From contig NC_092676.1 in NCBI RefSeq assembly GCF_964355755.1, positions 19,672,871 through 19,736,870 on the forward strand: a stretch of DNA of 64,000 nt, given 5' to 3'. A program made the translations under genes and the position numbers. The notes below the pieces were generated by a model, which saw only the letters and a list, made by a program, of their open reading frames with translations, was not told the DNA's origin and ran no database searches. Numbering within the stretch: position 1 is the stretch's first letter; the number at the start of each line of letters is the position of its first letter. The DNA comes from Antedon mediterranea. Its lineage: Eukaryota; Animalia; Echinodermata. Positions 1 through 58,747 of the stretch are shown here, one piece after another.

Positions 1-245
1 AATGTGTTCCTTTCTGATAGGGGTATGTCTCCTGCCGACAGACTATTTCTCCTTAAATTCTTTTCACAAGAAAGTGACCCAAATGAGGAGTGCTAATGTA
101 TCTCCATATAATTATATAAAAAGTGTGCTAATTTCTAATCATTTCTGTTTCATATTAACAGAGAAAATGTGTTTCATTAAAAAAAAATAAAACTCTGAAT
201 TTTGCTGCCACATTTTTACTGTACTCAACTGTCTTCCACACACAG

Positions 246-6200: not shown

Positions 6201-9200
6201 AGCTAAAGAAGGTAAAGATGATGAAGAAGAAGATGAGGGAGGCATCAACATTCAAAAGGCAAAAAGTTTTCTTCAAGAAGAGGATAAGCATGACAAAGAG
6301 CTGTTCAAACAACGAGTGCGAGAGAAACACAAGGTTTGTATTGATCCGTAATTAATAACATCAATAAGAGCCTCTTTAAAGCTCTGTCAAACTTTATGTG
6401 ACAAAAAAATGTGATGTGTTCATATATGGACATGATGATGTCATATCACTACCATATTTGGGCACATCACTACCATATATGGGCACATCTTACTAGACTA
6501 GTTTGATAGTGTAGACAGAGCTTACGACCAAACAAAGGAGGAGTTTTATGTAGTTACATAATGGGTAGTGTAGACAGAGCTTACCAAACAAAGGAGGAGT
6601 TTTATGTAGTTACATAATGAGTAGTGTAGACAGAGCTTACCAAACAAAGGAGGAGTTTTATGTAGTTACATAATGGGTAGTGTAGACAGAGCTTACCAAA
6701 CAAAGGAGGAGTTTTATGTAGTTACATAATGGGTAGTGTAGACAGAGCTTACCAAACAAAGGAGGAGTTTTATGTAGTTACATAATGGGTAGTGTAGACA
6801 GAGCTTACCAAACAAAGGAGAAGTTTTATGTAGTTACATAATGAGTAGTGTAGACAGAGCTTACCAAACAAAGGAGGAGTTTTATGTAGTTACATAATGA
6901 GTAGTGTAGACAGAGCTTACCAAACAAAGGAGGAGTTTTATGTAGTTACATAATGGGTACTGCAAAAAAAAGAAATATAAAAGCGTATTTCAAAACATGA
7001 TTTTGCCCTTCCGGTTAATACAGTTGCTGTTCATGGAATAATAACATCGTGTACTGTAATAGTACAGTTCCATGGTCACACACTAATGTTAAACTGTTCC
7101 ATATGGCTCCAATTTTCCAAGGTTCTCCCCTCATCATCTGTATGTCACTTCTCATCAATTCGTTAGCGCGTCATGAGTACTCGTTACTATATCATGACAT
7201 TTTGCACCATGGCATTAAGTTTCCTTGATCTTACTTTTCTGTCCCTGACCAAAAATTAAAATCTCGGTTTATGCCATCTAAGTGTTTTGGCTTTTAATGT
7301 TTCTTGAATTATTGAAAGTAATCATGAGTAATTTAGTCGCCATATTGGCATAATGTTGAAGGCCTTGGGTGTATCTACGCTAAAGGTCAAAGGTTATCTG
7401 ATTCAATTGAATTGGTTTGGCTCCATAAATGGGATACTTTTTAAAAAAAGTGAGGCAAATCCAGAAAAATTAAACAGGGGAACATCTAACATGATGCTAT
7501 TATTATTATTAATTATTATGACAAATCACTTATTTATTTAAACCATAGACAAATAAGTTATTCTTCATGTTTAAACACACAAAAAACAATGTAAATAATT
7601 GTTTTAAACTGAGTAAGGAACCGTTTTCCCACATGGTGCTATGCCTAGCATTCTAGTAGCTGTGTTAATGCAGTTTCACTCATGTTAAAGCCAATTTACA
7701 CAGACGATCGGGTTTATGAATCGTCTGTCTATAGAAATATACAAAGGTGAAATATGTGATTGTCTATAATGTAACACCACTGTCAATCTTGTTGCAGGCA
7801 AAACGACTGAAAGAAAAAGAGGACAGAAGAAAGTCTAGAAAAAGGAAGGAGGACAGACATTCTGGTGATGATAGTGACGATGGAGAAGGAGGCGGAGTCA
7901 TGTTGGATGTGCAGTCAGAAGATACATTTGATGTCGATCTACTACCAGACCCAGATAAACAGAAGTCATCAGAAGATGAGGAATTAGAGGAGGATGAAAA
8001 GAAAGTATCAAAAAGGAAAAAGAAAGACAAATCAGATAGGTACATACAATATAAGTTATGATTGACAACTATCCAACACTTAATGCATATTTTTGGACTG
8101 TGGGTTGGTAAATACATAATTAAACGATAGAGAAAGATTATGTAATTCTATAGACTATTCAATAATATTTTGGCTCGTACAGTGGTGATATATTTTGTTT
8201 AACTTAGAGAAATCTTCAGCCTAAATGTATTAATATTTTTTATGGTGATTGGTTAATGGTTAGACCATCTATACATCACAGCCAATCACCAGTTCTAAAC
8301 AATGTTTATTTTTGGAATATTATTCATGAGCAGTAAGATACACGGTACCTTTGATCTAAAGTTGTTGCAAGTCCTTCTGTTTCGTTTTTTGCACTTAAAC
8401 TAATGCAAGTGCTACAGATACATACTGTAAAAACAACAAATACAGAGAATTTGATTAAAAAGATATTTATACAAATAAACGCCCAGCTTCGAATAAATGC
8501 CTCCCCTGAATAAACACCTCCCATAGAACAACCCTTTTCAATAAACGCCACCCCCTCCCTCTTTTCGAATAAACGCCACATAAACTTTATTTATTTTCTC
8601 GAATAAAATCCCCGTCACATGCATACAGTATATACACAATATTGTATTACAAAACATTTCTATTTGTAGAAATCATTGATCAGTTTTATGTATTTTATCA
8701 CTTCTCGGTATTGTGTTGTATCTTGTCATATCTAAGAAGTATTTAATTGATTATACATTCTAACATGTTACCATATTACACCTAAAATAAACGCCTCCCC
8801 CAAGTAAATGCCTCCCTCGAATAAACGCCTTCCCCTAAAAGCCATCCTGAACAATAAACACCCTGGGGCGAGGGCATATATTCAAATAAATACAGTATAT
8901 ATGAACAAAATTGATCATTATTCTACCCCATCCCAGCATCTAAATTTAACATCCTAACATGTTACCATATTACACCAAAAAAAAAATAAACGCCTCAACC
9001 TAATAAATGCCTCCCTTGAATAAATGGTCCCCCTAAAAGCCCTCCTGAACAATAAACTGGGGCGTGGGCGTATATTCAAATAAATACGGTATATTAACAA
9101 AATTTTAATTTTTTTTATATTGCAGCATCTAAATTTAAAATCCTGCTGTTATAATAATAATAATAAATACTTTATTTTAACACGGAAAAGCTTGTGTCAC

Positions 9201-10142: not shown

Positions 10143-10901
10143 AACAAATGGCATGTGATAGTTGCATAGACTACAGTCTATAGACTACAGCCCTTAACGG
10201 CAACTACAATATTCAGTGTAAACTTGTTGCACATCTCATTGGGACTGTGCCTCTGATTTAAAAGAGATACAATAAAAGTTCAGTTCAGTTCACCATACTG
10301 GGAGAGATGAGTGTTTTTAGGTTTACATGTATCATATATATATGATCTTTTTCCTTCTGGATGTCAGGGTATTTTACTGTATGTGTACAAAATTTGAATG
10401 ATTTAATTTGTATAATGTACTGTGGTTTACTGTCTATAAAAAAAATCATGGTACGAAAAGTAAAAGCACAAGAAAATAATGTTTGTATCTTTCACACAAA
10501 ACAAGGGCAGATCCAGGATTTATCAAACAGTGGAATGTTACATATAATATTGTTTTACAAAATTATTTTAAAATTAGTTCATAATTTCATTTGAGTGTCT
10601 CTACAAAGAATTATTATTCGTACTACAGGTATAATAAATCTGCAAAATCTCAACTACAATTTAATTAAAATGAATTTTATGCAATAGAATATTTATGATA
10701 GTAACATAGATAACGATCTTTTCTCTGATCATTCTATGCCATTAAAAGACATTACTATTGCACATGACATCATGTTTAATGATGTTATTTGGGTTTTGAA
10801 ATAAAAACTTTCTGTAGTGATCTGACATCCATGACAGAAATGGAGTTATTTTCTTGAGCTTCCAGGTCTGTCTAATACTTGTTTACTGAGTAAAAAGCTC
10901 A

Positions 10902-11077
10902 ATAAGGTTTATCGCAAATACCTTGATTTCGCGAGAAACGTCATTCCACAATGGATAATGGGAAGGGTTTGGGAGCAATAGCGCCACCGTATAATACAAA
11001 CTTTATATACTGGTGGTGGTATTGTTCCCAAACCCTTCCTATTATGCATCGCTCACGCAATTTGCGATAAACCTTAT
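10902..11077. mobile_element. Hairpin MITE upstream of the CaRF-oxidoreductase gene
   Basis: 18-bp TIR ataaggtttatcgcaaat / atttgcgataaaccttat plus internal inverted arm gggaagggtttgggagcaata / tattgttcccaaacccttcc. Confidence 0.8.
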
Positions 11078-11419
11078 GTACATACTGTTATTAAATATAA
11101 TAAACAACATCCAAAATTAATTGTATGAATGGCTATGTTTAAAATATTCTGTTATAGACATGGTTATGGTGCATACCAATCGCATCATTATTTTAAACAT
11201 AATTATTATTGATTATGAATACTTTTATGAGAAATTTTTTTTTTTTTCAATATTAAAGAGCGTAAATATATGATTATGTTGTGTGTTTTATTGGTTTTTT
11301 TTAATATAAATGCGACGTTTAAACGCTAAATGAGTATACCATCAGAAAACAAAAACAAATTCATACCGTCACCAATATTGGGCTGAAAATGTTTTTTACT
11401 TGGCAACCTTGTCTTCAAG

Positions 11420-14400
11420 ATGGATCCAATCTTGAATCCTGATGACAAAATTGCTCGTGAAAAAGACGGTTCTTGCTGGACGAGTCTATTTGCTGGGACA
11501 ATTTTACCTAATTATGGTTACGTAAACAGCATCGAGGATTGTAAAAAACTCACTGAATTTTACGCCGAAGTAACATCGTCAAAATATGTCGTTACCAAAG
11601 TTAATAAAGCTTTCGGAGAAACCGGTAGGCTTTTCATCTTCATGTTTAGGTAGTCTACCTGAACTACCGCACCACCACCAATGTGCCCATCATTGCGAGG
11701 CGATGTGTAGGATGGAATCGAGATTCATAGGCCTAGCCTAGGCTTACACTACTTCTGCCATTATACTTACTTGTGTGGTATTTGTAAGAGTATATCAACA
11801 CATTGGATGGCTTTCATTTATTTTATTTAAACTAGAGGGGCCTATATGTACTAGGCCCTAGTATAATTTTCCTTTTAATTGATTTTTTTTTTTAAATCGT
11901 ACTTTCTGGCAATTTCATTGTTTTGTATTGTAGAGTGTCACATGTGTGATGCAAAATTCAAATTTCATTTTTATTCAAATAATTTTCTTTAAAAAGTAGC
12001 CTTGTTTTAAACTAAAATTTGTGTGATGCCAATACAATTTATATCGAGAAGTAGTAGAAGGGAAATGAGGCAATCTCTATACTACTAATTACTGTTGTCA
12101 CTAAACTCTTTTGGATTGTACAATGTGCTTTTAATGTGACTGTATAAGTACAAAAATAAATTCTTTTCAGATTTCAAAAGAGAACCACATCGTCTTACAT
12201 GGGAATTTAAATCATGCGATAGCCAGGGAATGGATATTCCTTTTGATGGAGTACCGTTTATGATCGTAAGCAAGAAGATTATGAGTTGCCAGTATGGATC
12301 GGACAAGTGCATCGCACAGAAACGTCGTTACAGACAAAAGATGGAAGTAAGTTTTGTATTAACTGTAGCAGTTAGTCGGTACAAACAGTCGTGACCAGCT
12401 GAGCGTAAAAAAAAATAACAGCGTTTTCAGGGGATTTCACCTTTTCAGGACACCATGTTAATTAAAAAATCGTAATTCCTTTACGGATAGTTGTTTGAGA
12501 AAATAAATTACTGTGAAATGTTCTTGAAAGATTGGCCTACATCACTGTATGATTGAAAAAAATTAGAAACATTTTTTTCAGTGCTTAAAATTTACATAGT
12601 GCTACATTACAAATATTCATATTTTTTATTGTAAATAAGTTGTGGTAAAAACAAATCGTTTTCATAAACAATAATATACAATTTAAAGGAACAAAGTAAA
12701 ATTCAATCACATTTTTATAATAGGAGCCTGGAGTTACAAAGAAGCGAAGAAACGTTGTGTTCTGCAAAAAGCGAGACTGTCCTGTTCAGATTCGATTTAG
12801 AGAAGTCATCAAGTTTCCAGACTATAAAGTAAAGTGTTCAATTTCGGTCAATTTTTTTTAAAGAAAAAAAAATGCTATGAGTTCGACTTTCATCGTCTTT
12901 TCTGTGAGAGTGTAATATATTAGCAGTATTCTCGGGACAACATCCCTTTGTTGGGTACTGAAGGTCCTCTTAAAAAAATGGTTTTACTATATAAAAAATT
13001 TGGATACGTGTACATTTTCTGCAAACATGTAGTTTTGTTAGTTAAATCTACAGCTATTACGTCCCTATCCTTCCCAAATTATTGTAAAATTTGATTTTAA
13101 CCAAGCAAATGGAAATAAAAATTACATTTAAGGGTTGATAAATTTAGCAATTAATAAATTTGTAAATTCTGAAATCGAATCAAATTGCCAAATTCATGAT
13201 ATCGTATTTCTTAAAAAGTGGCACTGGCGTTTAAATTAATTTGTTATCCTTGGAAAAATTGCAGCAACTGTTCTTATAATAAGCATGTTTTATATATATG
13301 TGGAGCCTGTTATGTAGGCCTACTGTAAAACAAGGTTAAACATGGTATATATTCCAAAAAAATACCTCCTATTTAGGAGGATACTTTGGAACCCAAAAAG
13401 GGATGTCTCCTGATTATTGGTTGGTTCTAGTGTTAAAATATATATTGTCCCTTGTTTGTTTGACAGGTAAGTGTCCCCTTCATAATGGTGTCCCTTGAAT
13501 TGGTGGTCCTAATGTAAATTAACCAAATATGGTACTAGTGCATTCTTACACTGAATCAATTTTCAGGCTGCCATTTAAAATTTCAAGAAATTAGAGTTAA
13601 TCTATTCACACGGTTAATAACCGGTTATTTTTTGCCAGAAACATGACCTTTGAAACATGACCTTTGACTGCCACTTGTAGGAACAGAAATGAAAAAAAAT
13701 ATTGTTTTGTTATTTTATAAATAATGCTACAGTATATGATTGCAAAAAAGCATCCATAATTTTTTTTTAACTGAATAATGTTTTATCAGAAATTCATATG
13801 AAAAAGTAGTTCCTAATTTCAAGGGTTGTCGAAGGGTAGGAGTGTCCCCCACCCTCTTGGATCTGCCCTTGATATACACAATGAATTTGTGTTTCAACAT
13901 GCCCTTTGACCCATTGAATAGATTACTAGTTGAAGAAGTGAGTGATTTTGTATGCATATTAGAGAATGCATTTTCAATGGGATGTATAAAATTAAATTAT
14001 GTCGTTTTTATTTTTTTAAATTATTGGTTTCTTTTTTATAAAAGGAGAAATCCTTAACCCAAATTAGTCATCGCATAGGGATATGAAATGACCTTGTTAA
14101 TTGTCCACCCAGTAATATTATATCGAATTATTAATTATTAAAATGAGATTTATTATTCAATCTGTCACTTTGATAATTATTAAGGTGCATCTGTCAAATT
14201 TAGTGGGTTTTTTTTTTTTTTAAAAAATGTAATTTTAATTTTTTTCAGTAGTTTAGCTAAGCATTATAAAAATGTTGTGTGCTGTATCAGTCCATATTTT
14301 ACTATTGTGCCAATTTATTTTGGGACGATGTTTTTACTGGCTTTACTAAATCACTCAGTAGTCATCTTAAACAGTATAATTATATTACTGTACAAGAAGT

Positions 14401-17400
14401 ATGTGAGATATCAATTAATTAAAGAAAAATAATGAATGTTTATATTCGTAGAATGGTACAAATAATTTCATTCAGTGATTTCTACTATTCCACACACAAA
14501 CAGTCATTATTTGTATACTATTGCATGTTCAGCTTTTTGAAAATACTGTAATGCATGACAGCAGGTTATTTAAAAATGGAAAGTGAATATGAATAGTTTT
14601 GATGGAATAAATCTTTACCTCAGAACAGTAGGTGTTTTGACTAACTAGTTTGACAAAAGTGTGATGTGCCCAAATATGGTATTGATGATATCCTGTCCAT
14701 ATATGGGCACATTTTTTTTTGTCACATAAAGTTTTATAGTGTAGACAGAGCTTTATATTTTTAACTACAGTAGACCAAACTGAAATACTGTACTTATAAA
14801 GAAATAAGTCCTTTTTTCTTTAGGTCGTAAATGACAGTAAATACAACAGAAGAGTTCAATCACGTAAATGTCATCATGACATGAAGACTGGAGTCAATGT
14901 GCGATTTGAAAGACAGATCTATGTTCTTCTGCCATCACCAGATGATCACCAGTTCCATCCAACCCACAAGGTATGTTTACATCTGGTGCATCTGCATGTA
15001 TGTCAGAAAGAGGTGTTGCCCTGTCAATACACTACACAATACAATTTATTTGTCAGGTGCAACTGTAGTTTGGTTTCAAGGTTTTATTAATTCTAATGTC
15101 GATGCCTAATGTCAATGGCTAATTTCCAAAAAGAGCTTGACCTATCTCGTAAAAGTCCTAGACTTCTAACAAAGAAATACATAGTATGGTATGATAAAAC
15201 TGATAATAATCATTCAACAGTAAAAGAAAAACATTACAATTTTAACATACATTAAAACACCTCCTTTGGGACACCCCTATTTAGAAAGATACCTCTATTG
15301 AGGGAATACTTTCCCATGAAATGAATTCGGGGCAACATATGTTCTTGCACTAGAGACAACCCCTGTTAAGGGGAAAATTTTCTGAGTCCTCAATAGGGAT
15401 TTTACTCTATCCTAATGTCAAAATGAAGGCAAATTATTTTACTTTTTTTTAATAAACTGTATAGTACAGTAGGTTATGTCCAACACACCAGACAAAAAAT
15501 TTTAACCACAGTTTGACCCCTGAATAATGTGCTGTTTACTTATTATTAATATCAAAATTAAGGCAAATTATTTTACTGGAAAGTAGTAAAATGTCCAACA
15601 CATCAGACTCAAAGTTTAACCATAGTTTGACCCCTAATCAAATTGCTGTTTACTTTTATTAATATCTGTGGTTCCAGCCAAGTTCAAGGCAGTATTACGA
15701 CATGAAACCTCAGAGGAATAGGGAAGTCAAAATATAACCTGGGTTAAGCAGGGGGTCAATGTACTATATTTTTTTTCTAATACTGTTACTGGATTATGAA
15801 TTTGCACTGTTTATTTACTAATTTGACATTTGATTTTTTTCGTTTTGTTAGCGACTTAGTTCCCAAGATCCCATTGGACAGACATCCATTTCCTGCGTTG
15901 GTCATGGATTTGTAGAAAAATGAGTTATAAAAACATTTTGACAGATTAATCTCTTTAAATGAGATAGTACTGTCATGCCATTTTATATTCAATCAAACAA
16001 AGTATAAAAACATGTACATATTATAAAGTCTGAGTGGGATTTCTTTATAAAATCAGAGTAAAAAAAACTCATTTGAATTGTGTTAAGTACTGTAACGGTT
16101 TAATTCTGGTGTCAAAATTATCTTAAACACAGCACAAAAGATTTCAAAAAACATATTGTAAATTGTTTGCAGAAAGTGTTTTACTTGATAGTAGAATTAC
16201 GCAAATGATCAGTTAAAATTCTAACCGTATAATATCAAAGTTACAACATACTGTATTTAGTGACATCTATGCTTACAACAACTACAAAAAGTGTTGTAGT
16301 AAGTCTTGGTGGACATGCTTCAAAGTCCTAATAGAGGACTTTTTTGTGACCTAAAGGTGTCCCTTAATAGGAGTTCTACTGTATATTTTTTAAAGTTAAC
16401 CAATGATTTTTGACAGCAGAGATATGCCGAAACTATCCTAATGAGTTAGGTTGGTGTAAAAAGTGGAACTTGGCTCTGTCATGCAATACAGGCTTAAGTT
16501 TCAGGGTTAGGCTACTTATCCCATAAGCTATGTCTGAGAGCTTTATTAGAATGCTAAAAGATCATTGAAATTTCACCCAGGATAGGTACCCTGGTGGGCT
16601 TACAGAAGGTTAAATTATAGGTTTCTAATTTGCAAATATATCATTAAGGATAATTTTGGAGGATATTCTCACGCACGATTGAGATGATTTTCCTAAGAGA
16701 GATTTAAATTTGATGGGTGATTTGTTTCTTCCCCCTGATTTAGTTCCTATGGGATTAGGATTGAATAAGCCTAGAAAAGTCTTCCGTTGATAAATGTTTT
16801 GTGATTGGGAATTGAAAATAAACGTCATCTACGTATCCGTCACCATATACAAATGCGACTACCGCTGTCAGCTCTCCACTTTCTCACTTTCACAAGTTCT
16901 ACCGAATATTTCAACTTTTGATTAATTAGAGTAATTAAATGCAACTTTCTATTATTCACAATATTAAAAATTCAGTTTAAATTATTTATATTTTAAGTGT
17001 ATTTCTAAGATTTTGTAACTTAGGAAACTAATTCTATTCTGAAGCTCTATCTACTACAGTATATCGAACAACAACAAAAAGTGAGATGTGCCCAAATATG
17101 GTAGTGATATGCCCAAGGTAGTGATATGCCCAAATGTGGTAATAATATGATGTCGTCATGTCCATATATGGGCACATCTCATTTTTTTAGTGTAGACAGA
17201 GCTTAATAGTAATTCCTTCAAATAATACCAGTCTGGTATTCTATGGGAGGTTGGTGCTATGGACAGGATTTGAACCCAGCTTCTGGGATTGTTAGCCAAG
17301 TGTGTTCCCAACAAAGCTACAATTTTCCATACTGACTGCAAAAAAAATCTCAATCAACCAATTTCTTTACTCTTTTAGAAGGATTTTCGAATGAGAGCAG

Positions 17401-20400
17401 CAGTATTGGACAAGTCAATTGACCAACCGCAGTACAGGTTAAAGGTCATCATTAACAAGGTTTCTAGGCCAGAGCCTAAGAAAAATGAAGTGCGGATAAA
17501 AGTAGCGGCAACATCAGTGAGCAGACAGGACATTGCGAAGGTAATATACGCACATTGTTAAGATATTTGATCCTCGGTAAGCTTGGTTTGAACACCGCCC
17601 TTTATGATACCTTGCAGCTGTGAGGTTGATATTATAAGCAAGATAATCTATAAAAGATATATAGATAAATTTATTGGGAAATGATTTGTAATTATTAGAT
17701 AAGCTTTGACATTTAAATGGATTTATATTTGGTCAAGCTGAGTGGTTAAAATGGCTTCTTTCCAATCATTGTCAAATAAACTAAAACTATAGCTTGGAAT
17801 TTAAAATTATATAATAAAAAGGCTTACAGTCTAAATCAAATTACTTTACTTTTTTTGTCCTGTAATTAAATTGGATCTAAATTTCTTTAAGATAACATCA
17901 AACTTTTGAGAAAGATTTACTTTTCGGACTTTTGTATGTATTATTGAGGTGTTTCTTTCTTATTTTATTTTATTAATTCTTTATAGAAGTGCTTTGGTGG
18001 TTTTCTTTGGGAAAGGGGCAATACAACAACATCAGAAAGCCCTATTTAGGGGGAAGGCACAACTCCATTAAGAGGCCACTTTTTGGTGTCCCCTGTAGGG
18101 AATAATTTGGTATTTTGTTGTCCAAAAGATTTAATATATTTTTGTCCTTAATGTTTTCCAGAGATATGAAAGCTGGCCATTGCCACTAGGAGTCTCCAGC
18201 ATGGTAGGTACAGATGCAGCTGGTACAATAGAGAAAGTTGGTGATATCCTTCAGTCTAAGTGGAAAAAAGGTAAAAATATAATGCATGTAAATAATTTAA
18301 AAGAATAATAATAATGCGCTTTCCAACAAAATTTACATTTTACAGTTTTTAATTTATTGTTGCTCTTGTATTTTAGGTGACCGCGTAATGTGTCTTGTAT
18401 CCCATGGTGGGAATGCTGAATATGCCATAGCGTTGGAGGATCATGTGATGCCCATCCCAGATTTCATGTCCTTCTCCGCTGCGGCGGCTATACCAGAGGC
18501 TTGGATTACAGCGTATTATCTACTTCATGTACTTGGTAAGATATATTGCAAATTAGAAATGTATAATCCCAGTTCGAGTATAATTCCATTGTTATCCATT
18601 TATCGACAATAAATAGATAAATATGCATAACCATATACCCTATCTTTGCTGAAAATAATTTGTTGAAAGTTCCAATAGCAATAATAACGATTTTATTGTT
18701 CTTATGGATCATGACGTCATTTTATTGTATTTAAAAAAACACAATTTGTATCAAAGACACAATAAATGGTTATCTTAAGAAAGACGCATGATTATCTATT
18801 TACTGTCGATTGTTAGCATTCTGGGCCTTTAGACTCCCAATTATTCTTTGTCAGAGATTGTTCCCTTTTCTTACAATCAATTCCTTTCGATTCGATTATT
18901 TTCCTTTTGTAGTAGGTGGTATAAACAAAGGTGATGATGTACTGATACATGCAGGAGCTAGTGGTGTTGGAACGGCTCTCATTCAGCTGGTCAAATTGGC
19001 TGGTGGTCGCGCTATTGTCACCGCCAGTTCATGGAGCAAGTTGGAGATGTGCAAGAACATTGGAGCTGTAGCTGGATTCAATTACAAGGAACAAGATTTT
19101 GCACAAGAAGTGCTTACGTTCACCAAAGGTACAGTATGCATGAATAAACCTGAATTTAGTATCAAATATAGAGGGCTCACTTTTTTATAATTAGAGTTTG
19201 GGACAATTTTCAGCATGGAATCTTGCCATGATTTATGACGTAGCGTATGGTAAATTTGTTTACTTAGGCTCTGTCTACACTATCAAAGTTACTGTGACAA
19301 ATAAATGTGACATGTCCATATAGACACTATGACGTCCTATCTCTACCTACCACATTTACATCACATTATTTCTGTTTACACTAGTTTGATAGTGTAGACA
19401 GAGCTTGTGTTATGGAAAATGGGTCGCTTTTATACAATAGCCGCCTCAAGGAGCATTGGACCGAATGTAAAAAATAAACATTCATTCGTTCTTGTTGAGT
19501 TCTTCCACCAAACATCTGTCCACAATATTGTTGTTTGTTCAGTAAAGTTATGGTTGTGTTCCCAAATATGGTACTGATATGACATCATCGTGTCCGTAAA
19601 TTTTGTTATAAATTGGATCTTTTTTTTGTATTTTATAAATAGGGTTGTAAAAAATGTTGAAAAAGATACACACAAACATAAAAAAGACTTTTAAAAACCA
19701 TTAGACAAATTTAAAAATTGTCTAATGGTTTTTGCTAGCTATTTGTTTTATGTATCTTGTTGATGTACAGTATTCTACATTATATCAATTTTATGGTTAA
19801 TTTGATAAATATTTTTTATTTGTCACTTAGATCAAGGAGTAACATTGATCTTAGACTGCGTTGGTGCGATCCACTGTGCTGGAAATGCGCAGGTAATAGC
19901 AACAGAGGGCGTGTGGGTGGTTTACGGTTTGCTAAGTGGAACCGAGACGCCTATTGATCTACTGTCGACGATTTTGAAAAAGCGTGTGAATGTTATTGGA
20001 GCATCCATGCAGAGTATGGACAACAGTGTAAGTACTTAACCTTGGTATTATAGACTTTTATGTCCTTTGATTTGAATGAATGCTTAGTTCCAAATGAGGA
20101 TGTATGTATCGAATTAGTGGTTGTTTTAGTGGTTAATGTTACATTAGTGTTTGATTGTTGCGTTACTGGGTTCTAAAGATGTATACATTATGCAAGTTCA
20201 ATCAGATATGTATTTGCATCATTGTTATATTTTGTGTGACTATATCGTTTAGGTATTAAATAAAATTTCTTAGGTTGGAAACTTATTTTAAATATGCAGT
20301 AGTACTCCTGTTTCAAGAGAACTTGACTGTTTAAAAAAAAATATCAATAATTTGGCATTTATTTACCTTACAGTACAAAGCTGAACTGGTTGCTGGATTT

Positions 20401-21435
20401 AAAGAGAGACTATTACCCCATTTTAGTCCTGGGACGCAGTCATCTCTGTCACCCATAATCAACAAGTTATATCCTCTAAAGTGCGTTGGTGAAGCTTATC
20501 ATTTTGTTGAGTCGAATAGCAGCATGGGAAAAGTAATCTTAACATTAGAGGATAGTTTAATCAGGGATGAACAAGCAAAACGAGAACTGTTAGAAGTGGC
20601 CAAGAGCTTTGAGGCTCTTGCTAATGGTGTTATTGAGGTAGATCAAGGAAAAGTGACAGTAATGCAGGATGGACAAGTCTTGGCAGCTGAAACGCTCAAA
20701 CTCGGACATATCATTGGATTGCGACAACAGAATAACGTTCTACAGAGCGAAACAGAGGAGAGTGTTCAGGTGTTACTAGCAGATAAAATGGATGTTGGAT
20801 CGACCGTACACGTGACGACAGACCAGGTGCAGGGATTGAATAGCACTAATCTTCTAGTTGGTATGCAAAATGTAGAACATGAAAACACTATAGTGTATAC
20901 AGATCATGAGCGTACATTTATTATTGAAAATGAACAAGAATCCATATCAAATGCAAAGGATGGACAATTTACACAAACTTGTGCCGATAACACGTTTATA
21001 TATTCAGGATCACAACCAGATAACCAAAACCAAGTATTAAACCATGTGCAATCGATCGAACAATCAAACAGCTTTAACCAATCAGAAGCTGAGCATCTTT
21101 TAAATCAAGGTCAAATTGAAGGACAGCCACAGTTGATTGGTCATATTCAAGAGGTCGAAACCATGGATACAGATCATCTTTATCATGACCAGCCAACTCA
21201 GTCATATAACACGACTGGACAGTCAATAAACATACAAACACAACAAACTGATTTTGATGGTATGAATAGCTCAAATCAAGCACAACATATCGACTCGCAA
21301 GGAGAATTGAACCAAGGATTTACACAAAAGGTTGTGTACACCAACCAACCTCACCATTCTGGTGATAAACAACAGGAGATAATATTTGTACTAGAAGAAG
21401 CTGTAGCAAACTCGTCCTCTGAATGTCATGGATGA
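11420..21435 (+). CDS. CaRF (ALS2CR8)-like zinc DNA-binding domain fused to a PIG3/TP53I3-like quinone oxidoreductase with a Q-rich tail (isoform A, ~844 aa)
   Basis: Exons 11420-11624, 12171-12346, 12724-12828, 14824-14970, 17379-17540, 18162-18270, 18377-18535, 18916-19128, 19831-20027, 20374-21435 total 2535 nt, all GT-AG and in frame. CaRF motifs: RLTW, IPFDGVPF, SCQYG, DCPVQI..KFPDY, IYVLLP..HQFH. PIG3-like motifs: AAAIPEAWITAY, VLIHAGASGVGTA, AGFNYKEQDF, LILDCVG, VYGLLSG, MGKVIL. Confidence 0.85.
13320..13510. mobile_element. Tc1/pogo-like MITE remnant family (also ~15255-15400, ~16310-16384, ~18040-18100, ~38230-38620)
   Basis: Shared motifs cccctatttag(a/g)ggata(c)ct and gtgtcccttaatag...ctactgta; degraded. 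Confidence 0.45.
14644..14753. mobile_element. MITE family A copy
   Basis: gtgatgtgcccaaatatgg core, ending agtgtagacagagctt. Confidence 0.65.
17042..17204. mobile_element. MITE family A copy
   Basis: aagctctatctac ... tagtgtagacagagctt with the shared core. Confidence 0.7.
19266..19406. mobile_element. MITE family A copy
   Basis: ggctctgtctacactatcaaa ... tttgatagtgtagacagagct; full TIR pair. Confidence 0.8.
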
Positions 21436-21970
21436 GGTCATTTTTTTTTACTATACTATTGTACAAAAATTGTAGTAGAAAATGTCTAAATAAACACCAT
21501 TAGGGGACACTTCGGTTTCAATTTAGAACCAATTTCTTATTTCAAAGAATTTTTACTAATGAATAAAAATACAATTGTTTATGTATATTTATCCAATGTG
21601 TGCTGTGTTGTTGTGTGGTACAAATATTTTCTCCATCCAACAATTCTCTGTTACATATTCCCTCTATTTTGTCATATTTTACAGCATTTTTCAATGCAGA
21701 GTGGCTCAATTTTCCAAGCGCAGCAGTCATTTATATATATTGTCTTACATATTGTGTAAGACTAGTAGCCAAAGCGTTTGGTAATGTTTTTTTATTATTT
21801 AAATAAGCTCCTATAGTCAATAGAAAGTTACAATTGTATTGATGCCTAATCTCTGAAATCGTCAGGAAGTGAGCCCTCTATATTTATTCAGAAACGCACA
21901 ACGAAAATTAACCAAACCTCTGACAATTTTAATCACCAAGAGCATTGTGTTGTATAACTTTTTCTTTCAG

Positions 21971-24900
21971 CTTGAAACTGAAACAAATGAAGATGCCAAG
22001 AAAGGTTGGGTTTCCTTTATCAGCAAGAAAAGGGACTGTCCGGCTAATGTCACATTGCTGGAAATTATCAAATTTCCAGATTTTACAGTATGTTTTGAGT
22101 TACTAATGACTAATGTTTTAACTATTTGAACTTAACAAATTTATACTGTTCTCAGAGTACATAATCATCATTAAATATGAAAATACAGAGAAACAACACG
22201 GACACACAAGCAAACCCACACCAACCCCATTCCAATGTTGTACTGTTTGTATGACATGAATAAAGTTGAAAGTAAAGTAATCCTTTGTCACTTGGAATAT
22301 AACTCCTTTATCCAAGGTGCAGATTCTGAGAGGCGGATGACCTTACTTTATTTTAGTGGAAACACAACACACTAAAATATATATAAAACTTTGTTTCTTT
22401 AATTTTTGCGCTACAGGTACATGTTCTGTCAAAAACCCTGTCAGGCCCCACTCCTGACCCCTGCAACCACTCAAAAGCACCCCCTCCTAAAGTAAAAACA
22501 TGTATTATCAACTTATAGTGTGTATTTTGTTTTTAGCTTGAAGCAGACTCTGAAGATGGTAGGCGGTACGTGTCACAATACTTTTTTACCAAATTGAAGG
22601 AAGGAGATGTAAAATCTGAAAGACGTATTTATATTGCACTACCACAGCAATCTGATCACCAGTTTCATCCTTTCGAAAATGAAACCAAATATGTTCCCCG
22701 TAATAGGAGTAATGTTGAGATCCTTAATGATAAATGCAGAGTAAGTTTCATTAGCCTTCAAAGAAATCCATTTTACCTAGTTTAATGGTTATTTAATTAT
22801 TTTAACAAATAAATGAACCCAACAGAACTCATCTGTAGCAGAGAAGAAGTACTCAGTTTAGTGAAATAATATTTTGGGCTTGAGGTTATTGTCTGTTAGA
22901 TTGGGCTATATGTTTCTACTCTAGTACCTCACAGTGAAAGCAATTGCAAGCCAAATAAGGGGAAATATACTGTATACATCATGCAAGCGTACTTATTATA
23001 TTTCGGCTACAATTTGTACATCATTTTATTGTAAATGCTTTTACTTCAGTATTCCTAATGAATGTAACTTCATTTATTTTATTTTTTATTTGTATATATT
23101 GTATGAGAAACCAAAACACTTTCCTCTTTCCAAATTACAAATAATCTAAAAAATATCTCCAAAAAGATCTAACAATCTATTTTTGTTTTCATACCAGATT
23201 TCAAGAACCTTGAGGATAAAACAAACAATACGGGCCGCAATAGCTTCCAAGTCTGGATCTGTAGAAGACATCAGTGTTAAACGTATCCCAATTTCGATGT
23301 ATGCAAAAAGTGATGAGATAGTTATTAATGTTTTTGCCAGTGCTGCCAATAGACAAGATATTGTAAAGGTAGTGAATGAATTGTTTATTTCTGAGGCAAA
23401 ATGATAAGAATAATAAATGTTTCAAGCATTATAACGATGGAGTGTTTTAGTTTTAAGACAGCAGCAGCCGATTTTATAAACGGTTTCTAAGACCCCAATG
23501 TATTCTATTGATCACCAAGAACTGTTCTTTAACCAGTTTTAAATTTTAGCTGACATAACACAACCATGATCTGCTTAACTCTGAAATCAATGTGAATATT
23601 TAAAAGTCAAACTTCCACTTAAGGAAAACTGTGTTCTGGCTAATAATATCATTTCATAGTGAAGTATGTACAGTAGTTAACATTAAGTTCTATCATTAAT
23701 TATTTGTTTTTTCTGTCTTTTCTATATTTTTTCAACCTTTAGGACATCTCGATAACAAGTGTGGGACAACAGATTATTGGTTGTGAAGCAGCAGGCATTG
23801 TATATGCAACAGGCAACAAAGCTTCCAAATGGAAAAATGGTAGAGTAACACATTTTATTTTTTCACTTCAACTTCTCGGCATGAATCTTGCAGCCAATTC
23901 CAGCTGAAGCTATAATTTTCTAGTGTATAGATGAATTATGTGCACCACATTTGTCACAAGTGTATTCTGTACACCACATGTGTTTCACAATAGATACATT
24001 ACCTTTATTATATGCCTAACATACCGTATTTTCCGGAGTATAGGTCGAGACTTTGTGGGAAAATTTTAATTGCAAAATCGGGGGGTCGACTTATACTCCG
24101 ACCATGCGATTTTTGAAAAAAAATCAGGCCGAAAAAATATGTTCCAAAGCCGTCAGCTGTCAAGGCCCAGCAAGGTCAGTGGCCTATCATCAATCACTCA
24201 CAGAAGTTTTCAATTTAATACCTACACTGTACAAAATAATACAACTCCAACAAGTACTGGTCAATAAAATATTAATATATCACAATGACTCATTTTGATA
24301 TTAATATTATGCTTTTAAGATAATTAAGAATAAATAGTTTTCTTTATGCTTCTTATTCACTCTCGCGAAAATATCGTAACACACACCACAGACGTCGGAA
24401 TGTCCATGCAGCATGTTTGTTATTGCGCGATATTTTCATCTATATGCATGCGCAGTTTGGTTGTTTGTTCGTAATTACAATTACTGCGCATGTCTATTCA
24501 TAAAATAAATTCTCCTTAGTCGGGTGCGTGTACATTTACAGATAACGCGATTTACAACTACTCGCCTGTACAATTTAATAAGCCTCCTAACGGAAAACTC
24601 GTTTTAATTTATTCGAGTGACGCGAAAAACATCGCTGATGGCAAGTAATGCTACATCGCTGTCATTTATTATAGGCTGGTGAAGACGGCGGCGGCGAAGT
24701 CGTCGTCATTACGTCCGTCCGATATTGATTAGGCCTACACTTTAATAATATAAACAAATAACCACATTTCATACATTTCTAACCCTCTTTGAACTTTAAA
24801 GTAAGTTGTGTTATTAGCCGATTTTGGGGGTCGATTTATATTCAGGTCATACCAAAATCAACGATATTCTAGGCCAATGTTGGGGGTCGACTTATACTTG

Positions 24901-27900
24901 GGTCGACCTATACTCCGGAAAATACGGTAAATCCAAGTTTAACTTTCCATGTCCATATCATGGAATTCTCCTATGTCATATGAAAACTATTCAACATTTG
25001 CATATTTTACATATTCCAGGTGATAGAGTGATGGCATATTTACATAGTGGAGGATGTGCTGATAAAGTTACTGTACATCAAGATCATGTGATGTCTGTTC
25101 CAACATGGATGACACTATCATCAGCTGCTGCACTCCCTCAAGCGTGGTTGACGGCCTACAATCTGTTATGTCATGAAGGTTAGTACTGTATATATGTATG
25201 TAAGTTCGCAGTACACAAAAATACTCTTCTATGGCTAGTTTCAATCATTTTCACTGTGAGCCTTGCTATCTTTTTTTAGATAGATATCTATATTTTTTAA
25301 TTTCATAAGCATCCAACCGTGAGTAACTCGCCAATTACAGGATGGATAAACTAAACTTTTGTTTTCACCATGCAAACTTCAAACAATAAAACACTGTATA
25401 TTGCACATTCATACAAAGCCATTACATTCCAGGAGAGACTTTAAAATGATTAGTTTTGGATGCATGGTGTACATGTAATAGTTTCAGACTTTCAATGTAT
25501 AGAACCTAAAAATAGCTTTCTTTTTAATAAAAATCAATTGGAATCAAGTGTACATCAACATAAAAACATAAAATGCTGTGAATTCTCTCTTTTTCTTGTT
25601 TGCAGCTTCTATGAAACACGGTGACATTGTCTTGATCCATGCAGGGGCTAGTGGTGTAGGCACAGCACTGGTCCAATTGGTCACCATGGCTGGGGGTGTT
25701 GCAATTGTTACAGCAGGCTCAGATGGAAAAATTGGAATTTGTAAATCATTGGGTGCTTCTGCTGGATTCAACTATAAGTCTTTAGATTTTGCTAAGGACC
25801 TCACAAATCACCTTAATGGTAAATTATGTGTTTTATTTCTTGGTTCAAAATGTGTATGACTGCCCAGACACATTTTTCACAACGTGTTAAAGCAGAAATT
25901 GTGGATCATGTATGAATTTAATTATTAATAGACACCTAACCATATTTCATGTGAAATCCTCATCAGCCACCAGAGTCACAGCCAGAGTTTCAGAATGTAT
26001 TTTTTTTCCAGACACCGTCTGTCTTTGGAACAAACTACCACAAGAGGCTGTGGAGTCAACATCACTAGAGGGATTACAAAATTGTCTCTCCTATGTTGAC
26101 ATAAATGAAAAATCTAAAATTATCTTTAACAACAAAATGTAATGTAATATAATATGAAACATGTAGAACACAACATTTTTGGAAAGGCATAAATGCAGAC
26201 CAACCCATGTGCGACTATACTTAAATGAGGTTCTGCACATAGGAAGATGATGATGAGATAATTTAATAATCTGTCTCTTGAATATAACTAATTATTTAGT
26301 ACTGCTTCCAGAAAAGCTGTTGACATACAGCTATAAGGAATAACGTTGCCAGAACATCATGTGACTATTACCACTATAGACTGTAATTACCATTGCTAAT
26401 ACCAGCGTGTATTATATTCTATTAATATTTAGTAGCTGAGTTTCCTATTGGTTATTATAAATAACATTTCTTTCTTATTATTCTTTTCTTTTTTGGCCCT
26501 AAATCTCTTTGATTACCTTATTTAAAGAAATAAAAATCTCACACATAAATGTGCTATTTACAAATAAATTCTGAATGATATAACTAAAGTTTTTTAATTT
26601 TAATAGGAAAACGTGTACATTTGATCTTTGACCCAGTTGGTGGTACTCATTGGCAGTTGAATAGTAACATTATTGGACAGGATGGAACTTGGATTATCTA
26701 TGGTCTTTTAAGTGGGCCTTATATTGCTGGAGATATGAGACCACTCTTGAAAAAGAATGTTACAATCAAGACATCCTTGCTGAAAAATAAGTCCAACGAG
26801 GTAAGTCAATCATTAAGAATAAATTGTTTCATTTAAAATGTTCTTATTGATGGAAAATCAGTAAAAAAAATCATTTGAGAATAACTGTACCTGTGGTGTA
26901 GGCCTGCCCTACACTAGTCATAGGCTCAGTTCACCCTAGGCTAGTGTAGCATAGACTAGACTAATACTACCGTTTAGTATTACTAGCTAATACTGGACGG
27001 GTGTCCCGTTGACTTTTCTACAACATACTGTGTGATGTACAAGATTGTGGCAAAAGATTGCTAGGACCCAAGTCACTTGAGTCCAAGTGTTTGGATCTGA
27101 CAATAGGGAATTTAAAAGTTGCCCCAATTTGAACAAAAATAAAGAATATCATATATTATATATGTTTATATAATAAAATGACCATTAGATGTAGTTCATT
27201 GCTTAAACTACCATTACCAATATGAAGTGAGAAGAAGCTATAAAAGACAACAACAAAAATGGCTGTTATGGCTAAGATGTCGTCGGGATTTTTTCTCATG
27301 ACAAAAAGCAAACACCACAAATAACCTGTAACCAGTTTTGTTTAATATGTTGAGCATATTGTGTGAGCTTTGAATTATCTTTCGGATATCCTTAGAAATA
27401 AGAAAGAAAATAAAAACAAAGAGAATATTATCTCCGTTGATGATCTTATCGAATGTTCTATTAGGTTATTAAACGCGCCACTTAAACTGGAAATGTGCGG
27501 TTATATAAATACCAAGTATTATTTTATTCTAGCACATAGCAGAACTTACCACAGAATTTACCAAAGATGTTCTACCATATTTTTTACCAAATGATAAAAT
27601 TCAACTGAGTCCAGTTATCAACAAATTCTACCCATTAGAAGAAATTAAAGATGCTTACTCCTTTCTGGAGTCAAACGAGACCATTGGAAAATTGATTATC
27701 AATATTAAAGATGAGGATATGTCTAAGGTAGGAGTACCAAGTAGTTTACAGAATCGAAAAAACGTCGAGGTTCCGGGCACGTGCAGTCAGCTCGAAGAAT
27801 TGGCACACGCATCGTCTCAATTGCTTGAAGAATCAAGAATGCTGGAAAGAAGAAAATCGGGTTTGGAATCTCCGCTTGATGTTTTTATTTCTTCTGAGGT

Positions 27901-27919
27901 ATCAGTTGAAACGACATGA
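21971..27919 (+). CDS. Second paralogous cassette (exons 3-10): C-terminal half of CaRF-like domain plus PIG3-like oxidoreductase; predicted isoform B (~640 aa) using shared exons 11420-11624 and 12171-12346
   Basis: Exons 21971-22087, 22537-22740, 23198-23368, 23743-23839, 25020-25178, 25606-25818, 26607-26800, 27533-27919; same intron phases as cassette A (159- and 213-nt exons identical in size); no stops. Motifs KKRDCPANV..KFPDF, IYIALP..HQFH, LPQAWLTAY, VLIHAGASGVGTA, IYGLLSG, IGKLII. Confidence 0.82.
24024..24927. mobile_element. Non-autonomous Tc2/pogo-type (Tc1/mariner superfamily) DNA transposon, 904 bp
   Basis: Perfect TIR ccgtattttccggagtataggtcga / tcgacctatactccggaaaatacgg, TA on both sides, subterminal gggggtcgacttatac repeats, no transposase ORF; sits in a cassette B intron. 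Confidence 0.88.
25860..26256 (+). mobile_element. 3' fragment of a CR1/L2-type LINE
   Basis: Translates FFPDTVCLWNKLPQEAVESTSLEGLQ, the typical CR1/L2 ORF2 C-terminal FFPxTxxxWNxLP motif; followed by a (gat)n-type tail. Confidence 0.6.
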
Positions 27920-28172
27920 TTCAAACCAATGTTTGGATAAATAGGAAATCTTATTCTTTGAAAAAGTAGAACCTTTTAATACTCGCTTTTTAAAACAATG
28001 TGAAATGAGGTTTTGTTTTTTTGTCCAGTTAAAAATGATTTACTAAATACTTCATTCATTTACTAAATAAAAGTACATTTATTAAAAATGATAAAAACAA
28101 TTCCATATCTTAAATTATTTTTATTTCATTTACCTTTTTACTTGTATTGTTCTTCTATCAAATTTACCCTAA

Positions 28173-28895: not shown

Positions 28896-31800
28896 TAGTC
28901 TATGGGCTGGAGGGGGGTCACCGTGCACCCCCCCCCCCCCTCCCACAGTTAAACTTCCTTGGTATCATTTTATTCCCACAGGCTTATAGAGTGAAAAAAT
29001 CGATGTTAACAAGAAAAATATAGGGATGCATTGTATGTACTTGCATTATTTGCATTGGTCATTAGTGTTTTATGTTAAAATATTTGTTTGGGGTAGGGGG
29101 TAACATTTATGCTCATAACCCATTAATTAAAACACTAACCAATATGATCTTGGTATCATTGTGTAGCATATATGTTTTTTAATCATATAAAATTTAATTC
29201 AATTCAATCGGACAATTATTTCCGTCACTAGAGGTCAAAAGGTCATGAACTTTTGCAAAAATGCACATTTTGTCCAATATTATACTAGATACATTTCAAT
29301 GTCACATCTCCAAATTTTGATACATTTGATTTAGATTATGTTTTACTTATACTTACTAACATATGTAATTATAAAATGTCAGTTAACATGAAAACAATTA
29401 AGTGCATTATGTACCATTACCATTTTTGTCTATTCATAAAAATCGTAATCAAAATATTTGTTTGGGGTAGGGGGTAACGTTTATGCTCATAACCCATGCT
29501 TTAGCGAATGGATTTTTATAGTGTTGGTATCAAACTTTAGCCTACATGGTGATCAGTTATAAAAATGTTAAATAATAAATACAATTTACAAAAATCGATG
29601 TTACTAAAGATCAAAAGTTCACAGATTTTGTAAATTAATCCTAAGACGTTTAAAAATCTACAATTGTGTGTAGACGTCTTTTATGGAATATGAATATTGA
29701 TATTAACACGAAAAATGTATAAAAATTGAGTGTATTTAACTATCATATTTGAATATTTGTTATTCATAACCACTAATACAAAATACTGCTCAAATCGTCA
29801 TTTTGATCATTAAAAATTACATTTTGACTACATCCTTTTCTGTAATCTGACTCATCTAAAACTTGATACCTTATATTTAAATGCTACATTCCATTATCTG
29901 TGTCACTATCAGATGTTTCATCACTTAGTACATCATCGTCGTCACTTGAAACTTCACTTTCGGAGTCCGTCTCATTCTCATCATCATTTTCTAGTGAGTC
30001 TAATACATCCACAAGTTCCACAGGCAAAACTTCATTTCCATTCCATTTTGGTTCAATGTATCCATTTTCTATTACCCAACCATGTTCATTCAGATTTGGT
30101 ATTTGGTGATCTGCAACATGGGCATGTTTCCATATCCATACTTGGTAATTAACCCTTTTCATGTGTTCTTTAAGTGTTGATTGGCATGGTGGTAAGGCAC
30201 CCATGTCAAATTTTGCACTTCGTCTTAGAATGCCATCTTCTCCACGACACTCAATATCTTGGAATGACTCAACATATTCACCTTTCTAACAAGTCGATCA
30301 CCATACATTAGACATGTAAATTCTTCAATTGTTGAAAAGATCTCGTCACTGATCGCAACACCATTTCCAACTTCAGCAAATGCAATTTGATATTTTGAAT
30401 CAGCCAAAAGCAGCTTTTGTGGCTTTACTTTGCCTTTTGCCTTAAATGCACTAGTGCTATCACATCCTGTAAATGCATGCATACTCAACAATTATGCCTT
30501 CAAAGACTGTGTCATTGACTTTGCCAGTTCTGATATATTGATGCACTTCTTTGTTCCACCTCTTCCTGTATCAAATATGACAATGATGTTTCTTAACTTC
30601 TCTGCATAGTGCATCAAAATGTAAAATATGTCTGTGTCTGGGCTTTTTACCCTCACATATTTGTAACCCATCTCCTGAGCATACAGTTACAGTTACAGTT
30701 ACAGTTACAGACAGTACAATATTATCCGGGTGTTGGTCTCTTCTTGATTTGATTCCAGGGATTCAATCATATTTACTGTGGTTGTTTTTCCATCAGATCT
30801 CAGATCATATGCTTTGCCATCATTGATTAAAATAATTTTCTTTCCCATTATACTTGAGGAAGATTCATCGTTACTCCATGTGAACTGAACTTTATTGTCA
30901 TCATTTGTTAAAAATTGCTTCCAGTCCTTTGGCCGCCGCATGCTGCCTCCTTTCAAAATCAGTCTGTCACCGGTCCCGCGACGACGTCTCTCCATTCCTT
31001 TCACCGATTTCTGTCTGTACATATCAGTACTGAAGATACATGCTGTTGATTTTTTGATTGCCTCAAGTAAAATTTTCCTTGCTATTTCATCAAATGTTCC
31101 TGGAATTTCTTTTAAAGTATGAAATATTGCATTTCCGTCTTCGATCACCATACACTCAGTTAGATTAAAGCTTACTGGAAATTCACTGATATCTGATTTT
31201 TTTAGAAGTTCATGCATGCCCTTTGACTTATCAGTTTTGACAAAAGAGCCATCTGCCATTCCTATGCTGTATGGAACCGGAGTTAATTGATATGTCTTGA
31301 GTTCTTGTAAGTTAAGTTTTTTATCTGGAACACTTTGCGATTTTGCTAGAATTTGAAATGCAATATTTGCTTGTTGACTGTATTGTATCTCTTTGTTTTT
31401 TGAAGTTTTAAGTATGATATGTTTTGGTAGCTTCCATCTACCATTGGTCACTACACGGCAGATATCTTGACCAATGGAATTTACAAGACGGTTAACATGA
31501 GATGATTTGGAGTGCTTTTCACCAGAAAACAAGCACATTAGAAAGCTAGTAAGTGATGTAGGAATTACTCCATTCCCAGTGTCCAAGGACTCCATGACGG
31601 GAGGCCAAGCTAATTCTTTACTGGATTTATATGCATCCAGAATGCCATCTCGCAACAAACCAGCAACTTCAATTACTTTATCTGAGCATGCGAGGATGTA
31701 ACTGGACCTTATGGCCTGTCCAACACTTACAGTTAAATTATAGATGATATAAGTAGCAAATTTACCATCGCTACCATTTCCTTCTCCATCATTTTGTGGA

Positions 31801-52025: not shown

Positions 52026-52059
<34 letters not shown>

Positions 52060-57741: not shown

Positions 57742-58747
57742 AATAAGACACTAGATGTACATATAGTTAGAGTTTCGTTACTAACGTTTATTATGCGTCG
57801 TATCGTAGTATATTATATTGGTAAAACTGTGGAGGATTACAAAGAAAAACATTATCTAGACTACATTAAAAATGGCAATACAGCGTATAAACATTGTATT
57901 TAGTTGTTTAAGCAAAAAAGGTAACGTAATTATTCTAATAAAAACCTAAATTAATTAATATCTTTAATAGCGATACTGTACTCTTTAATTAATATAACAT
58001 TTCAACAAAGGTATAGGCATCAATGGTACAATTATGCCTATGCATTAAGACTAGGAATGAATTAAACATCGTCTTTGACTAAAGACTGTAATTAAGATAG
58101 ATACTGTACATATATAGCCAGTACTATAAAGTAGTAACTTGATTAAATAGTATATATGGACCTATATATGGCCTAATTAAAAGTTAAAATAACAACTATA
58201 AATTAACATGTACTCACACACTGTGATTCTCAAATAGAGGCACGTCAAAGATATAAAAAGAAATGAAACTTGTAAACGAAAAGCATATAAAAGCTTGTAC
58301 TTCTCTCAGTGAATGCTACTGTATTACTAATACAGTACTTTATACTGTACAATGTATTAATGCATTGGAATGTCCAAATCTAAACAAGTGCCTTACATGA
58401 TAATACAGTGTGGTACCCAGAGGTCAAAACTAGGAGTAACCATGGTAACAATTAAAGTACATTTTTAAGGAAATTTATTTGGAGACAAAATAGTTATCGA
58501 AATCAAATTAATGTTCAATTAAGGGCGGGGTAGGAATATGTGATGTTATGCAACGTAGAATAATCGGGTTATACATAAATATAAATAAGCACAAAACGAG
58601 TGACATTAACCTAAAATTAATTTGATTTTTTAAAAGTTGAATTTAAACGAGCCTACGTCATTGAAAAAAGTTAAATGCAGGCGAAGAGTATCTTTCGAGG
58701 ATTTAGAAAGGTCATTCCATGTTTTAGTTCTTGATATAACAAAAACA

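Follow-up and report, generated by a model that had tools for sequence, protein, structure and literature searches.

A second tandem 3' cassette, probably spliced to the common exons, at a CaRF-type and PIG3-type fusion locus of the feather star Antedon mediterranea

The genome of the crinoid Antedon mediterranea contains, within the 64,000-base window analysed here (NC_092676.1, positions 19,672,871 to 19,736,870), a forward-strand locus in which two common 5' exons are followed by two tandem, homologous sets of eight exons, termed cassette A (12724-21435) and cassette B (21971-27919). Judging from their sequence, exons 1-2 and cassette A encode a crinoid fusion of an ALS2CR8/CaRF domain with a PIG3-type quinone oxidoreductase. 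Cassette B repeats exons 3-10, and it probably serves as an alternative 3' cassette in cis that has a poly(A) site of its own. The window consists of AT-rich animal DNA with introns, and an earlier reading of it (the original prediction) had already proposed such an arrangement.

Cassette A is documented by both transcript and protein records. AG acceptors and GT donors are found throughout the locus, and exons 1-2 plus cassette A give an 844-residue frame, residues 89-844 of which are identical, letter for letter, to RefSeq Antedon protein XP_071956551; a variant using the acceptor at 18913 corresponds to XP_071956548/549. One sequencing run was guessed to be RNA, and its contigs (called RNA contigs below) behaved as spliced RNA along cassette A. 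A 1523-base RNA contig begins at 11429 and has reached 20027 by record position 1467, the exact summed exon length, and a second is unbroken over 20431-21449, within which the last exon of A ends. Use of one or the other of the tandem acceptors 18913/18916 adds a single Val; RefSeq has both forms, and the RNA contig takes 18913. The RefSeq Antedon proteins (X1/X2) begin at a Met inside exon 2 (12230), as does Anneissia X2. The X1 form of the Anneissia japonica ortholog LOC117120356 (877 residues), on the other hand, contains the exon 1 peptide; exon 1 is 63% identical to its N-terminus and is covered by an RNA contig over 11429-11623. A further stretch covered by an RNA contig, 11686-12038 in intron 1, may be an alternative first exon that drops strand 1 of the domain. 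Of the 17 exon translations, ten have a match with E < 0.001 to ALS2CR8 or to ADH_zinc_N/ADH_zinc_N_2, and these follow one another as expected, an order that, at the level of profile matches, is not due to chance. Exon 2 alone scores 46.4 bits against PF15299 (Pfam cut-off 28.9), and the Anneissia ortholog scores 118.9 bits, with profile positions 6-145 of 235 matched.

Cassette B has the same anatomy. Its 15 splice sites are canonical, its frame is open across all eight exons, and the positions and phases of its introns agree with those of cassette A in seven of seven cases, which bears out the original description of B as intact. The acceptor at 21971 is phase 0 and lies on a homolog of exon 3 (16 of 35 aligned residues identical), and the exon 2 donor at 12346 is likewise phase 0, both as proposed; joining exons 1-2 to B produces a single open frame of 640 residues. 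This joined product scores 173 bits over positions 6-187 of the 188 in a family profile, while B exons 3' and 4' taken singly give 23.5 and 26.9 bits against PF15299. Identity between A and B is about 45% (36/80 residues in the CaRF half and 143/320 in the enzyme domain), and that between Antedon A and Anneissia A is 84 and 74%, respectively. The motifs HQFH and KKRDCP are common to A and B, and each occurs in only 1 of 149 other family matches. Both cassettes have their own stop codon and their own poly(A) signal (AATAAA at 21489 and 21562 for A, and at 28066 for B). They are separated by 535 bases, against some 536 bp in the earlier estimate.

The boundary between common and variable exons falls within a predicted zinc-binding domain. 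In an alignment of 81 family members, C108 is present in 80, C146 in 81, H204 in 77 and H207 in 75, and all four Cys/His ligands occur together in 72 of the 81 rows. A predicted model with a confidence (predicted local distance difference test, pLDDT) of 91 has strands at residues 56-61, 98-108, 149-157 and 191-197 together with these four ligands. The cassette boundary follows residue 127, which places C108 and strands 1-2 in the shared part, and C146, H204, H207 and strands 3-4 in the cassette; B retains its three predicted zinc ligands. The first putative ligand had been described as shared and the others as carried by the cassettes, and this assignment holds (C108 in exon 2). The same prediction had the DNA-contacting strands swapped as well, and here it needs correction: strands 1-2 are supplied by exons 1-2, and in WRKY-GCM1 domains, according to the excerpts of the cited papers on which this and the later comparisons draw, strands 1-2 make most of the DNA contacts (PMC1702500). 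By analogy, the main DNA-contacting strands are probably common to both forms, which would then read similar sites.

The CaRF domain is predicted to fit the WRKY-GCM1 zinc fold pattern (pattern from PMC1702500). Structure comparison returned an Aft2-DNA complex (4lmg) as its top row (Z 5.0, root-mean-square deviation 2.9, 75 aligned residues), tied with unrelated folds, and Z values of 3.2-3.3 for WRKY domains. AFT and FAR1 rows were also present in a fold atlas search, below its naming threshold, and Foldseek with the pLDDT 91 model gave no match at E <= 0.001. Aft2 is taken here to be a member of the WRKY-GCM1 fold. The two versions of the second half-domain differ in charge: the A half has 19 K/R and 9 D/E (net +10), and the B half 13 K/R and 15 D/E (net -2). 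The family median for this half is +8, and only 1 of 78 members is as acidic as B. A and B differ further in the basic linker that precedes the second Cys, in the enzyme domain and in the tail (295 vs 70 residues). None of the best 150 family matches begins after the first Cys, a result of little weight since a full-length query is biased against half domains.

Cassette B is both old and constrained. Between A and B, the proportion of synonymous differences (pS) is 0.73, the synonymous divergence (dS) is 1.8 or more and the nonsynonymous divergence (dN) is 0.55; 31 of 79 four-fold sites are identical where 24 are expected by chance, so synonymous sites are near saturation, and the introns no longer align. 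The two CaRF-half exons of B are themselves constrained as coding sequence (dN 0.54, dS 1.77), and with a profile made from 80 non-query relatives the CaRF half of B scores 71 bits vs 82 for that of A. Neutral decay was simulated in 2000 runs with simple assumed mutation rates, and with indels either absent or assumed at 0.1 per substitution. At 2% divergence B was intact in 18% of runs (no indels) or 2% (with indels), and at 5% in 1.3 or 0%. A dead copy is thus rarely intact past about 2% divergence, and B is therefore, as read from its sequence, an old duplicate under purifying selection that is functional now or was until very recently; the long purifying selection proposed originally is upheld. 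In five-taxon trees, a sister relationship of B to the A of either species is rejected by the approximately unbiased (AU) test (p-AU 1.4e-06 and 2.7e-05). According to these trees the duplication therefore predates the Antedon-Anneissia split, for which no date was found in the literature searched, and B is older than that split. Three of the five trees, which place B among deep paralogs (the second Anneissia gene and a sea-cucumber gene), are not rejected. The CaRF half alone rejects no tree, and strict four-way site counts (0/1/1 and 4/1/7) favour no placement of B. Among the 40 of 93 allelic differences listed, 12 sites lie in A exons 2-10 (7 silent, 5 changing) and none in B exons.

What B lacks is a front end. 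The original prediction saw neither a copy of exon 1 or 2 nor a start-codon exon in the gap before B, and the searches agree. A tblastn search with the shared 127 residues, in their Antedon and Anneissia versions, found no other copy of exons 1-2 in the whole window (best other match E 0.72), and blastn of 10800-12723 against 20374-22100 found no remnant of them in the gap (best only E 0.41). The gap would accommodate thirteen mini-exons that run from an ATG to a phase-0 GT; scored with a matrix derived from the nine donors of the shared exons and of A, the best of them reaches 2.7, vs 5.5-9.7 for the seven donors of B. The first in-frame Met of B is residue 141, which lies inside the enzyme domain and behind 10 out-of-frame ATGs. 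The shortness of the gap is no oddity of this assembly, because 20321-21916 is spanned by a DNA contig from another run, possibly of the same sample, with 8 differing letters and 2 small gaps. The CaRF-half exons of B need a phase-0 upstream exon that supplies Cys108, and within the window exon 2 alone offers this; it is also the simplest source of the missing half.

Exon 2 had been proposed to splice to either 12724 or 21971. The former junction is established by an RNA contig and by RefSeq, while the latter is proposed from the in-frame fit and the missing first half of B, and several observations weigh against it. A protein search with exon 2 returned only A forms from Antedon and Anneissia (2 of 2 candidates), and the A clusters of the two species hold two members each, all of A type; a search with the last exon of B gave no protein match of 225-2000 residues (0 of 293 candidates). 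Both blanks are weak, and no public protein carrying the exon 2-B join was found. Frame alone does not single out exon 2, because the A donors at 12828, 14970, 17540 and 20027, as well as two GT sites inside the last exon of A (20637, score 6.8; 20532, score 5.7), are also phase 0. In addition, B evolves faster than A with the second Anneissia gene as outgroup (Tajima chi2 8.5 and 10.1), but not with the other outgroup (0.2 and 0.3). In the spliced run, the region of the first four B exons (21440-24020) has no contig cover on these exons, only 7 short intronic repeat pieces, and several of the later B bins have almost no depth; since one contig set can demonstrate presence but not absence, this blank was counted neither for nor against the junction. 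As to RNA pairing of the docking/selector kind, the best duplex of intron 2 with the sequence upstream of B has -19.3 kcal/mol, and 19 of 25 control windows gave a stronger one; no docking or selector arm was found among 15 inverted repeats.

Three other explanations were weighed against splicing of exon 2 to B. B may be a former complete tandem paralog whose own promoter and exons 1-2 were recently deleted, and which is now silent and as yet undecayed. Complete fusion paralogs do exist, such as the second full gene of Anneissia (XP_033125677), and a tree with B as its ortholog has a p-AU of 0.07; the acidic CaRF half of B, an outlier in the family, would suit such a history, as would, weakly, the failure to find a public B protein. 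However, the period for which a silent copy stays intact is short compared with a history older than the Antedon-Anneissia split, the gap retains no trace of exons 1-2 and is equally short in the contig of the other run, and A and B have two rare motifs in common. These data make a recently orphaned copy unlikely.

The remaining two are each still less probable. A tandem polyprotein with two enzyme domains in one chain would result from splicing of 20637 or 20532 in the last exon of A, or of 20027 in exon 9, to 21971. The scores of these phase-0 donors (6.8, 5.7 and 6.8, respectively) are within the range of real donors, 20637 is directly behind the end of the A enzyme domain, and the intron would be short. 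Such a chain leaves unexplained why B has kept three zinc ligands and a CaRF core with no first Cys nearby; moreover, the RNA contig over the last exon of A is unbroken, in both crinoids the RefSeq A proteins have the complete tail at their C-terminus, and a join from 20027 would remove the last part of the A enzyme fold. Alternatively, the 535-base gap could contain a promoter of its own, from which B would be translated alone (from a tiny first exon or from Met141) or trans-spliced to exon 2. Trans-splicing is known for the variable 3' exons of mod(mdg4) and lola (PMC4528330), and the gap has two moderate donors, 21755 (4.8) and 21780 (4.7). Neither donor follows an in-frame ATG, though, and those that do are the weak ones given above; a start at Met141 would leave the CaRF-half exons untranslated, yet these are constrained. 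The ratio of observed to expected CpG in the gap, a weak indicator, is 0.48, close to the 0.40 of intron 1 and lower than the 0.96-1.42 of the region around exon 1.

The enzyme domain of the locus is of the MDR type and complete in both of its parts, and each cassette retains an intact nucleotide-binding Gly motif. Its best solved relative is PDB 2oby/2j8z (299 bits over the whole domain), which is presumably human PIG3 (TP53I3). Compared with PIG3, both A and B have a different loop behind the first conserved helix, and the enzyme, which is recognised here by sequence, is fused behind a DNA-binding-type domain. Both the Gly motif of quinone oxidoreductases and the dimerisation of this oxidoreductase family have been described (PMC7822847). 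At E <= 0.001 the ALS2CR8-type domain family comprises 448 clusters. The 150 best of these 448 matches include two more CaRF-PIG3 fusions with the same domain order, Anneissia XP_033125677 and Apostichopus PIK51516; the fusion, as deposited sequences go, is common to crinoids and a sea cucumber. These two records are single-cassette proteins, unlike the Antedon locus. In 7 of 30 scanned relatives, a MULE transposase domain at, above or close to the cut-off follows the CaRF-type domain. The ALS2CR8-type domain also precedes OHCU decarboxylase and mevalonate diphosphate decarboxylase (Patiria miniata XP_038066994 and one ENA record; gene models as deposited), and the sequences hint at repeated capture of enzymes by this domain. 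Host-transposase fusions of vertebrates similarly join a transposase-type DNA-binding domain to a host domain, though in the excerpt available their partners are mainly regulatory domains such as KRAB (bioRxiv 10.1101/2020.05.07.082677), and the partner here is an enzyme. No description of a CaRF/ALS2CR8-PIG3 fusion or of this locus was found in the literature searched, which included few subscription journals and no supplements, and a metagenome scan with exon 2 confirmed 0 of 163 candidate stretches.

The layout of the locus has precedents in flies. In Drosophila, the number of tandem 3' cassettes is five to seven in CG42235, where each has six to eight exons, ten in Pip and three in PGRP-LC; the junctions of these genes have been shown, and the choice between cassettes is tied to 3'-end formation and in some cases steered by competing RNA pairings (PMC6191721). 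Like these genes, the Antedon locus has common 5' exons and then tandem homologous multi-exon 3' cassettes on one strand, and its downstream cassette lacks a copy of the common exons and fits them in frame. Unlike them as described, it has two cassettes, its second junction is deduced, no special RNA pairing was found, and the boundary cuts a predicted zinc site. The original prediction had likened it to lola and mod(mdg4). These genes, together with broad, combine a shared BTB/POZ domain with variable C-terminal zinc-finger domains and are partly trans-spliced (PMC4528330). A constant 5' part and variable 3' parts at one locus, encoding (here predicted) DNA-binding proteins, are indeed common to both; however, Pfam scans of the exons and of the Anneissia ortholog found no BTB family, there is no sign of trans-splicing, and CG42235, Pip and PGRP-LC are closer. 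In lola and mod(mdg4), furthermore, the switch does not divide the DNA-binding domain as it is predicted to do here, with one of four ligands and strands 1-2 shared and the enzyme domain swapped along with the rest. Mammalian CaRF is a sequence-specific DNA-binding protein (PMC2877716). The domain of this locus exceeds the PF15299 cut-off, and its DNA binding is proposed by family likeness.

The features of the locus are collected in Table 1. Elsewhere in the window, a gene with a Helicase_C match and charged C-terminal exons lies upstream (191-8061, +) and is assumed to be DDX10-like; an RNA contig at 11044-11262, about 160 bases before the exon 1 ATG, may be its 3' end. A 908-base element with perfect 27-base terminal inverted repeats and a high copy number, likely a non-autonomous DNA transposon, is found in a B intron (24022-24929), and a very high-copy short palindromic repeat in several A introns (about 14640-14755, 17076-17190 and 19264-19410). 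On the minus strand, fragmented long reading frames of up to 502 residues with no Pfam match (29884-32679) are probably a decayed transposon. An M1 aminopeptidase gene (37902-53093, -; Peptidase_M1_N, ERAP1_C) has a broken transposase-like region in an intron (42975-45163). Finally, 58671-59908 and 62154-63266 (-) contain a short-period tandem repeat, which gives open frames on either strand, and a long Ser/Arg-rich exon that has no Pfam match.

Table 1. Coordinates of the shared exons, the two cassettes and the sequence between and behind them (positions in the window).
Feature	Position	Strand	Remarks
Exon 1, coding part	11420-11624	+	ATG 11420; donor phase 1; first helix and strand 1 of ALS2CR8-type domain (fold prediction)
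Exon 2, shared	12171-12346	+	Donor phase 0; strand 2 ends in Cys108 (codon 12287)
Cassette A, exon 3	12724-12828	+	Cys146 (codon 12778); present in RefSeq Antedon proteins
Cassette A, exon 4	14824-14970	+	His204, His207
Cassette A, exons 5-9	17379-17540, 18162-18270, 18377-18535, 18913/18916-19128, 19831-20027	+	Quinone oxidoreductase domain
Cassette A, terminal exon	20374-21435	+	End of enzyme domain, then 295-residue Gln-rich acidic tail
Gap between A stop and B acceptor	21436-21970	+	535 bases; AATAAA at 21489 and 21562, then pyrimidine tract of B
Cassette B, exon 3'	21971-22087	+	Phase-0 acceptor; conserved Cys at 22037; PF15299 E 6e-05
Cassette B, exon 4'	22537-22740	+	His at 22657 and 22666, then longer linker; PF15299 E 5.7e-06
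Cassette B, exons 5'-9'	23198-23368, 23743-23839, 25020-25178, 25606-25818, 26607-26800	+	Quinone oxidoreductase domain; nucleotide-binding Gly motif intact
Cassette B, terminal exon	27533-27919	+	End of enzyme domain and 70-residue tail; ADH_zinc_N_2 E 6.5e-06
AATAAA after cassette B	28066-28071	+	Also ATTAAA at 28081

If cassette B is used as an alternative 3' cassette, transcription would run past the poly(A) sites of A, and exon 2 would be spliced to 21971 instead of 12724, perhaps rarely or in a restricted set of tissues. The transcript would use the poly(A) signal of B near 28.07 kb for its 3' end and encode the 640-residue protein. Each product is predicted to assemble one Cys2-His2 zinc site from ligands on both sides of the splice junction; as strands 1-2 are shared, the two would recognise similar DNA. 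Because the B form has an acidic second half and, by prediction, a different enzyme pocket, and lacks the long Gln-rich tail, it might bind DNA more weakly and activate less, and it could associate with A via the dimer face of the oxidoreductase. In a broader picture, offered as speculation and doubtful as a whole, one promoter would yield two transcription factor-oxidoreductases in which the shared half gives the DNA address and the cassette sets affinity, pocket and tail; B would be a damper that pairs with A, and the pair would form a switch that senses NADPH or quinones and has been conserved from before the Antedon-Anneissia split.

The layout itself is already known in flies; what is unusual here is a switch point in a predicted zinc site and a protein not previously described. 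The predicted fold would put the CaRF domain, for which no known family was reported in the available part of the 2010 CaRF paper (PMC2877716), near the transposase-derived WRKY-GCM1 fingers. If the exon 2-B junction is real, current annotation overlooks an entire eight-exon isoform whose retention predates the separation of two feather-star lineages, and the locus would be a deuterostome case of the fly-type 3' variable cassette with its switch point inside a zinc-binding domain. Found in crinoids and a sea cucumber, the combination of a CaRF-type domain with a PIG3-type enzyme is a candidate enzyme-coupled transcription factor.

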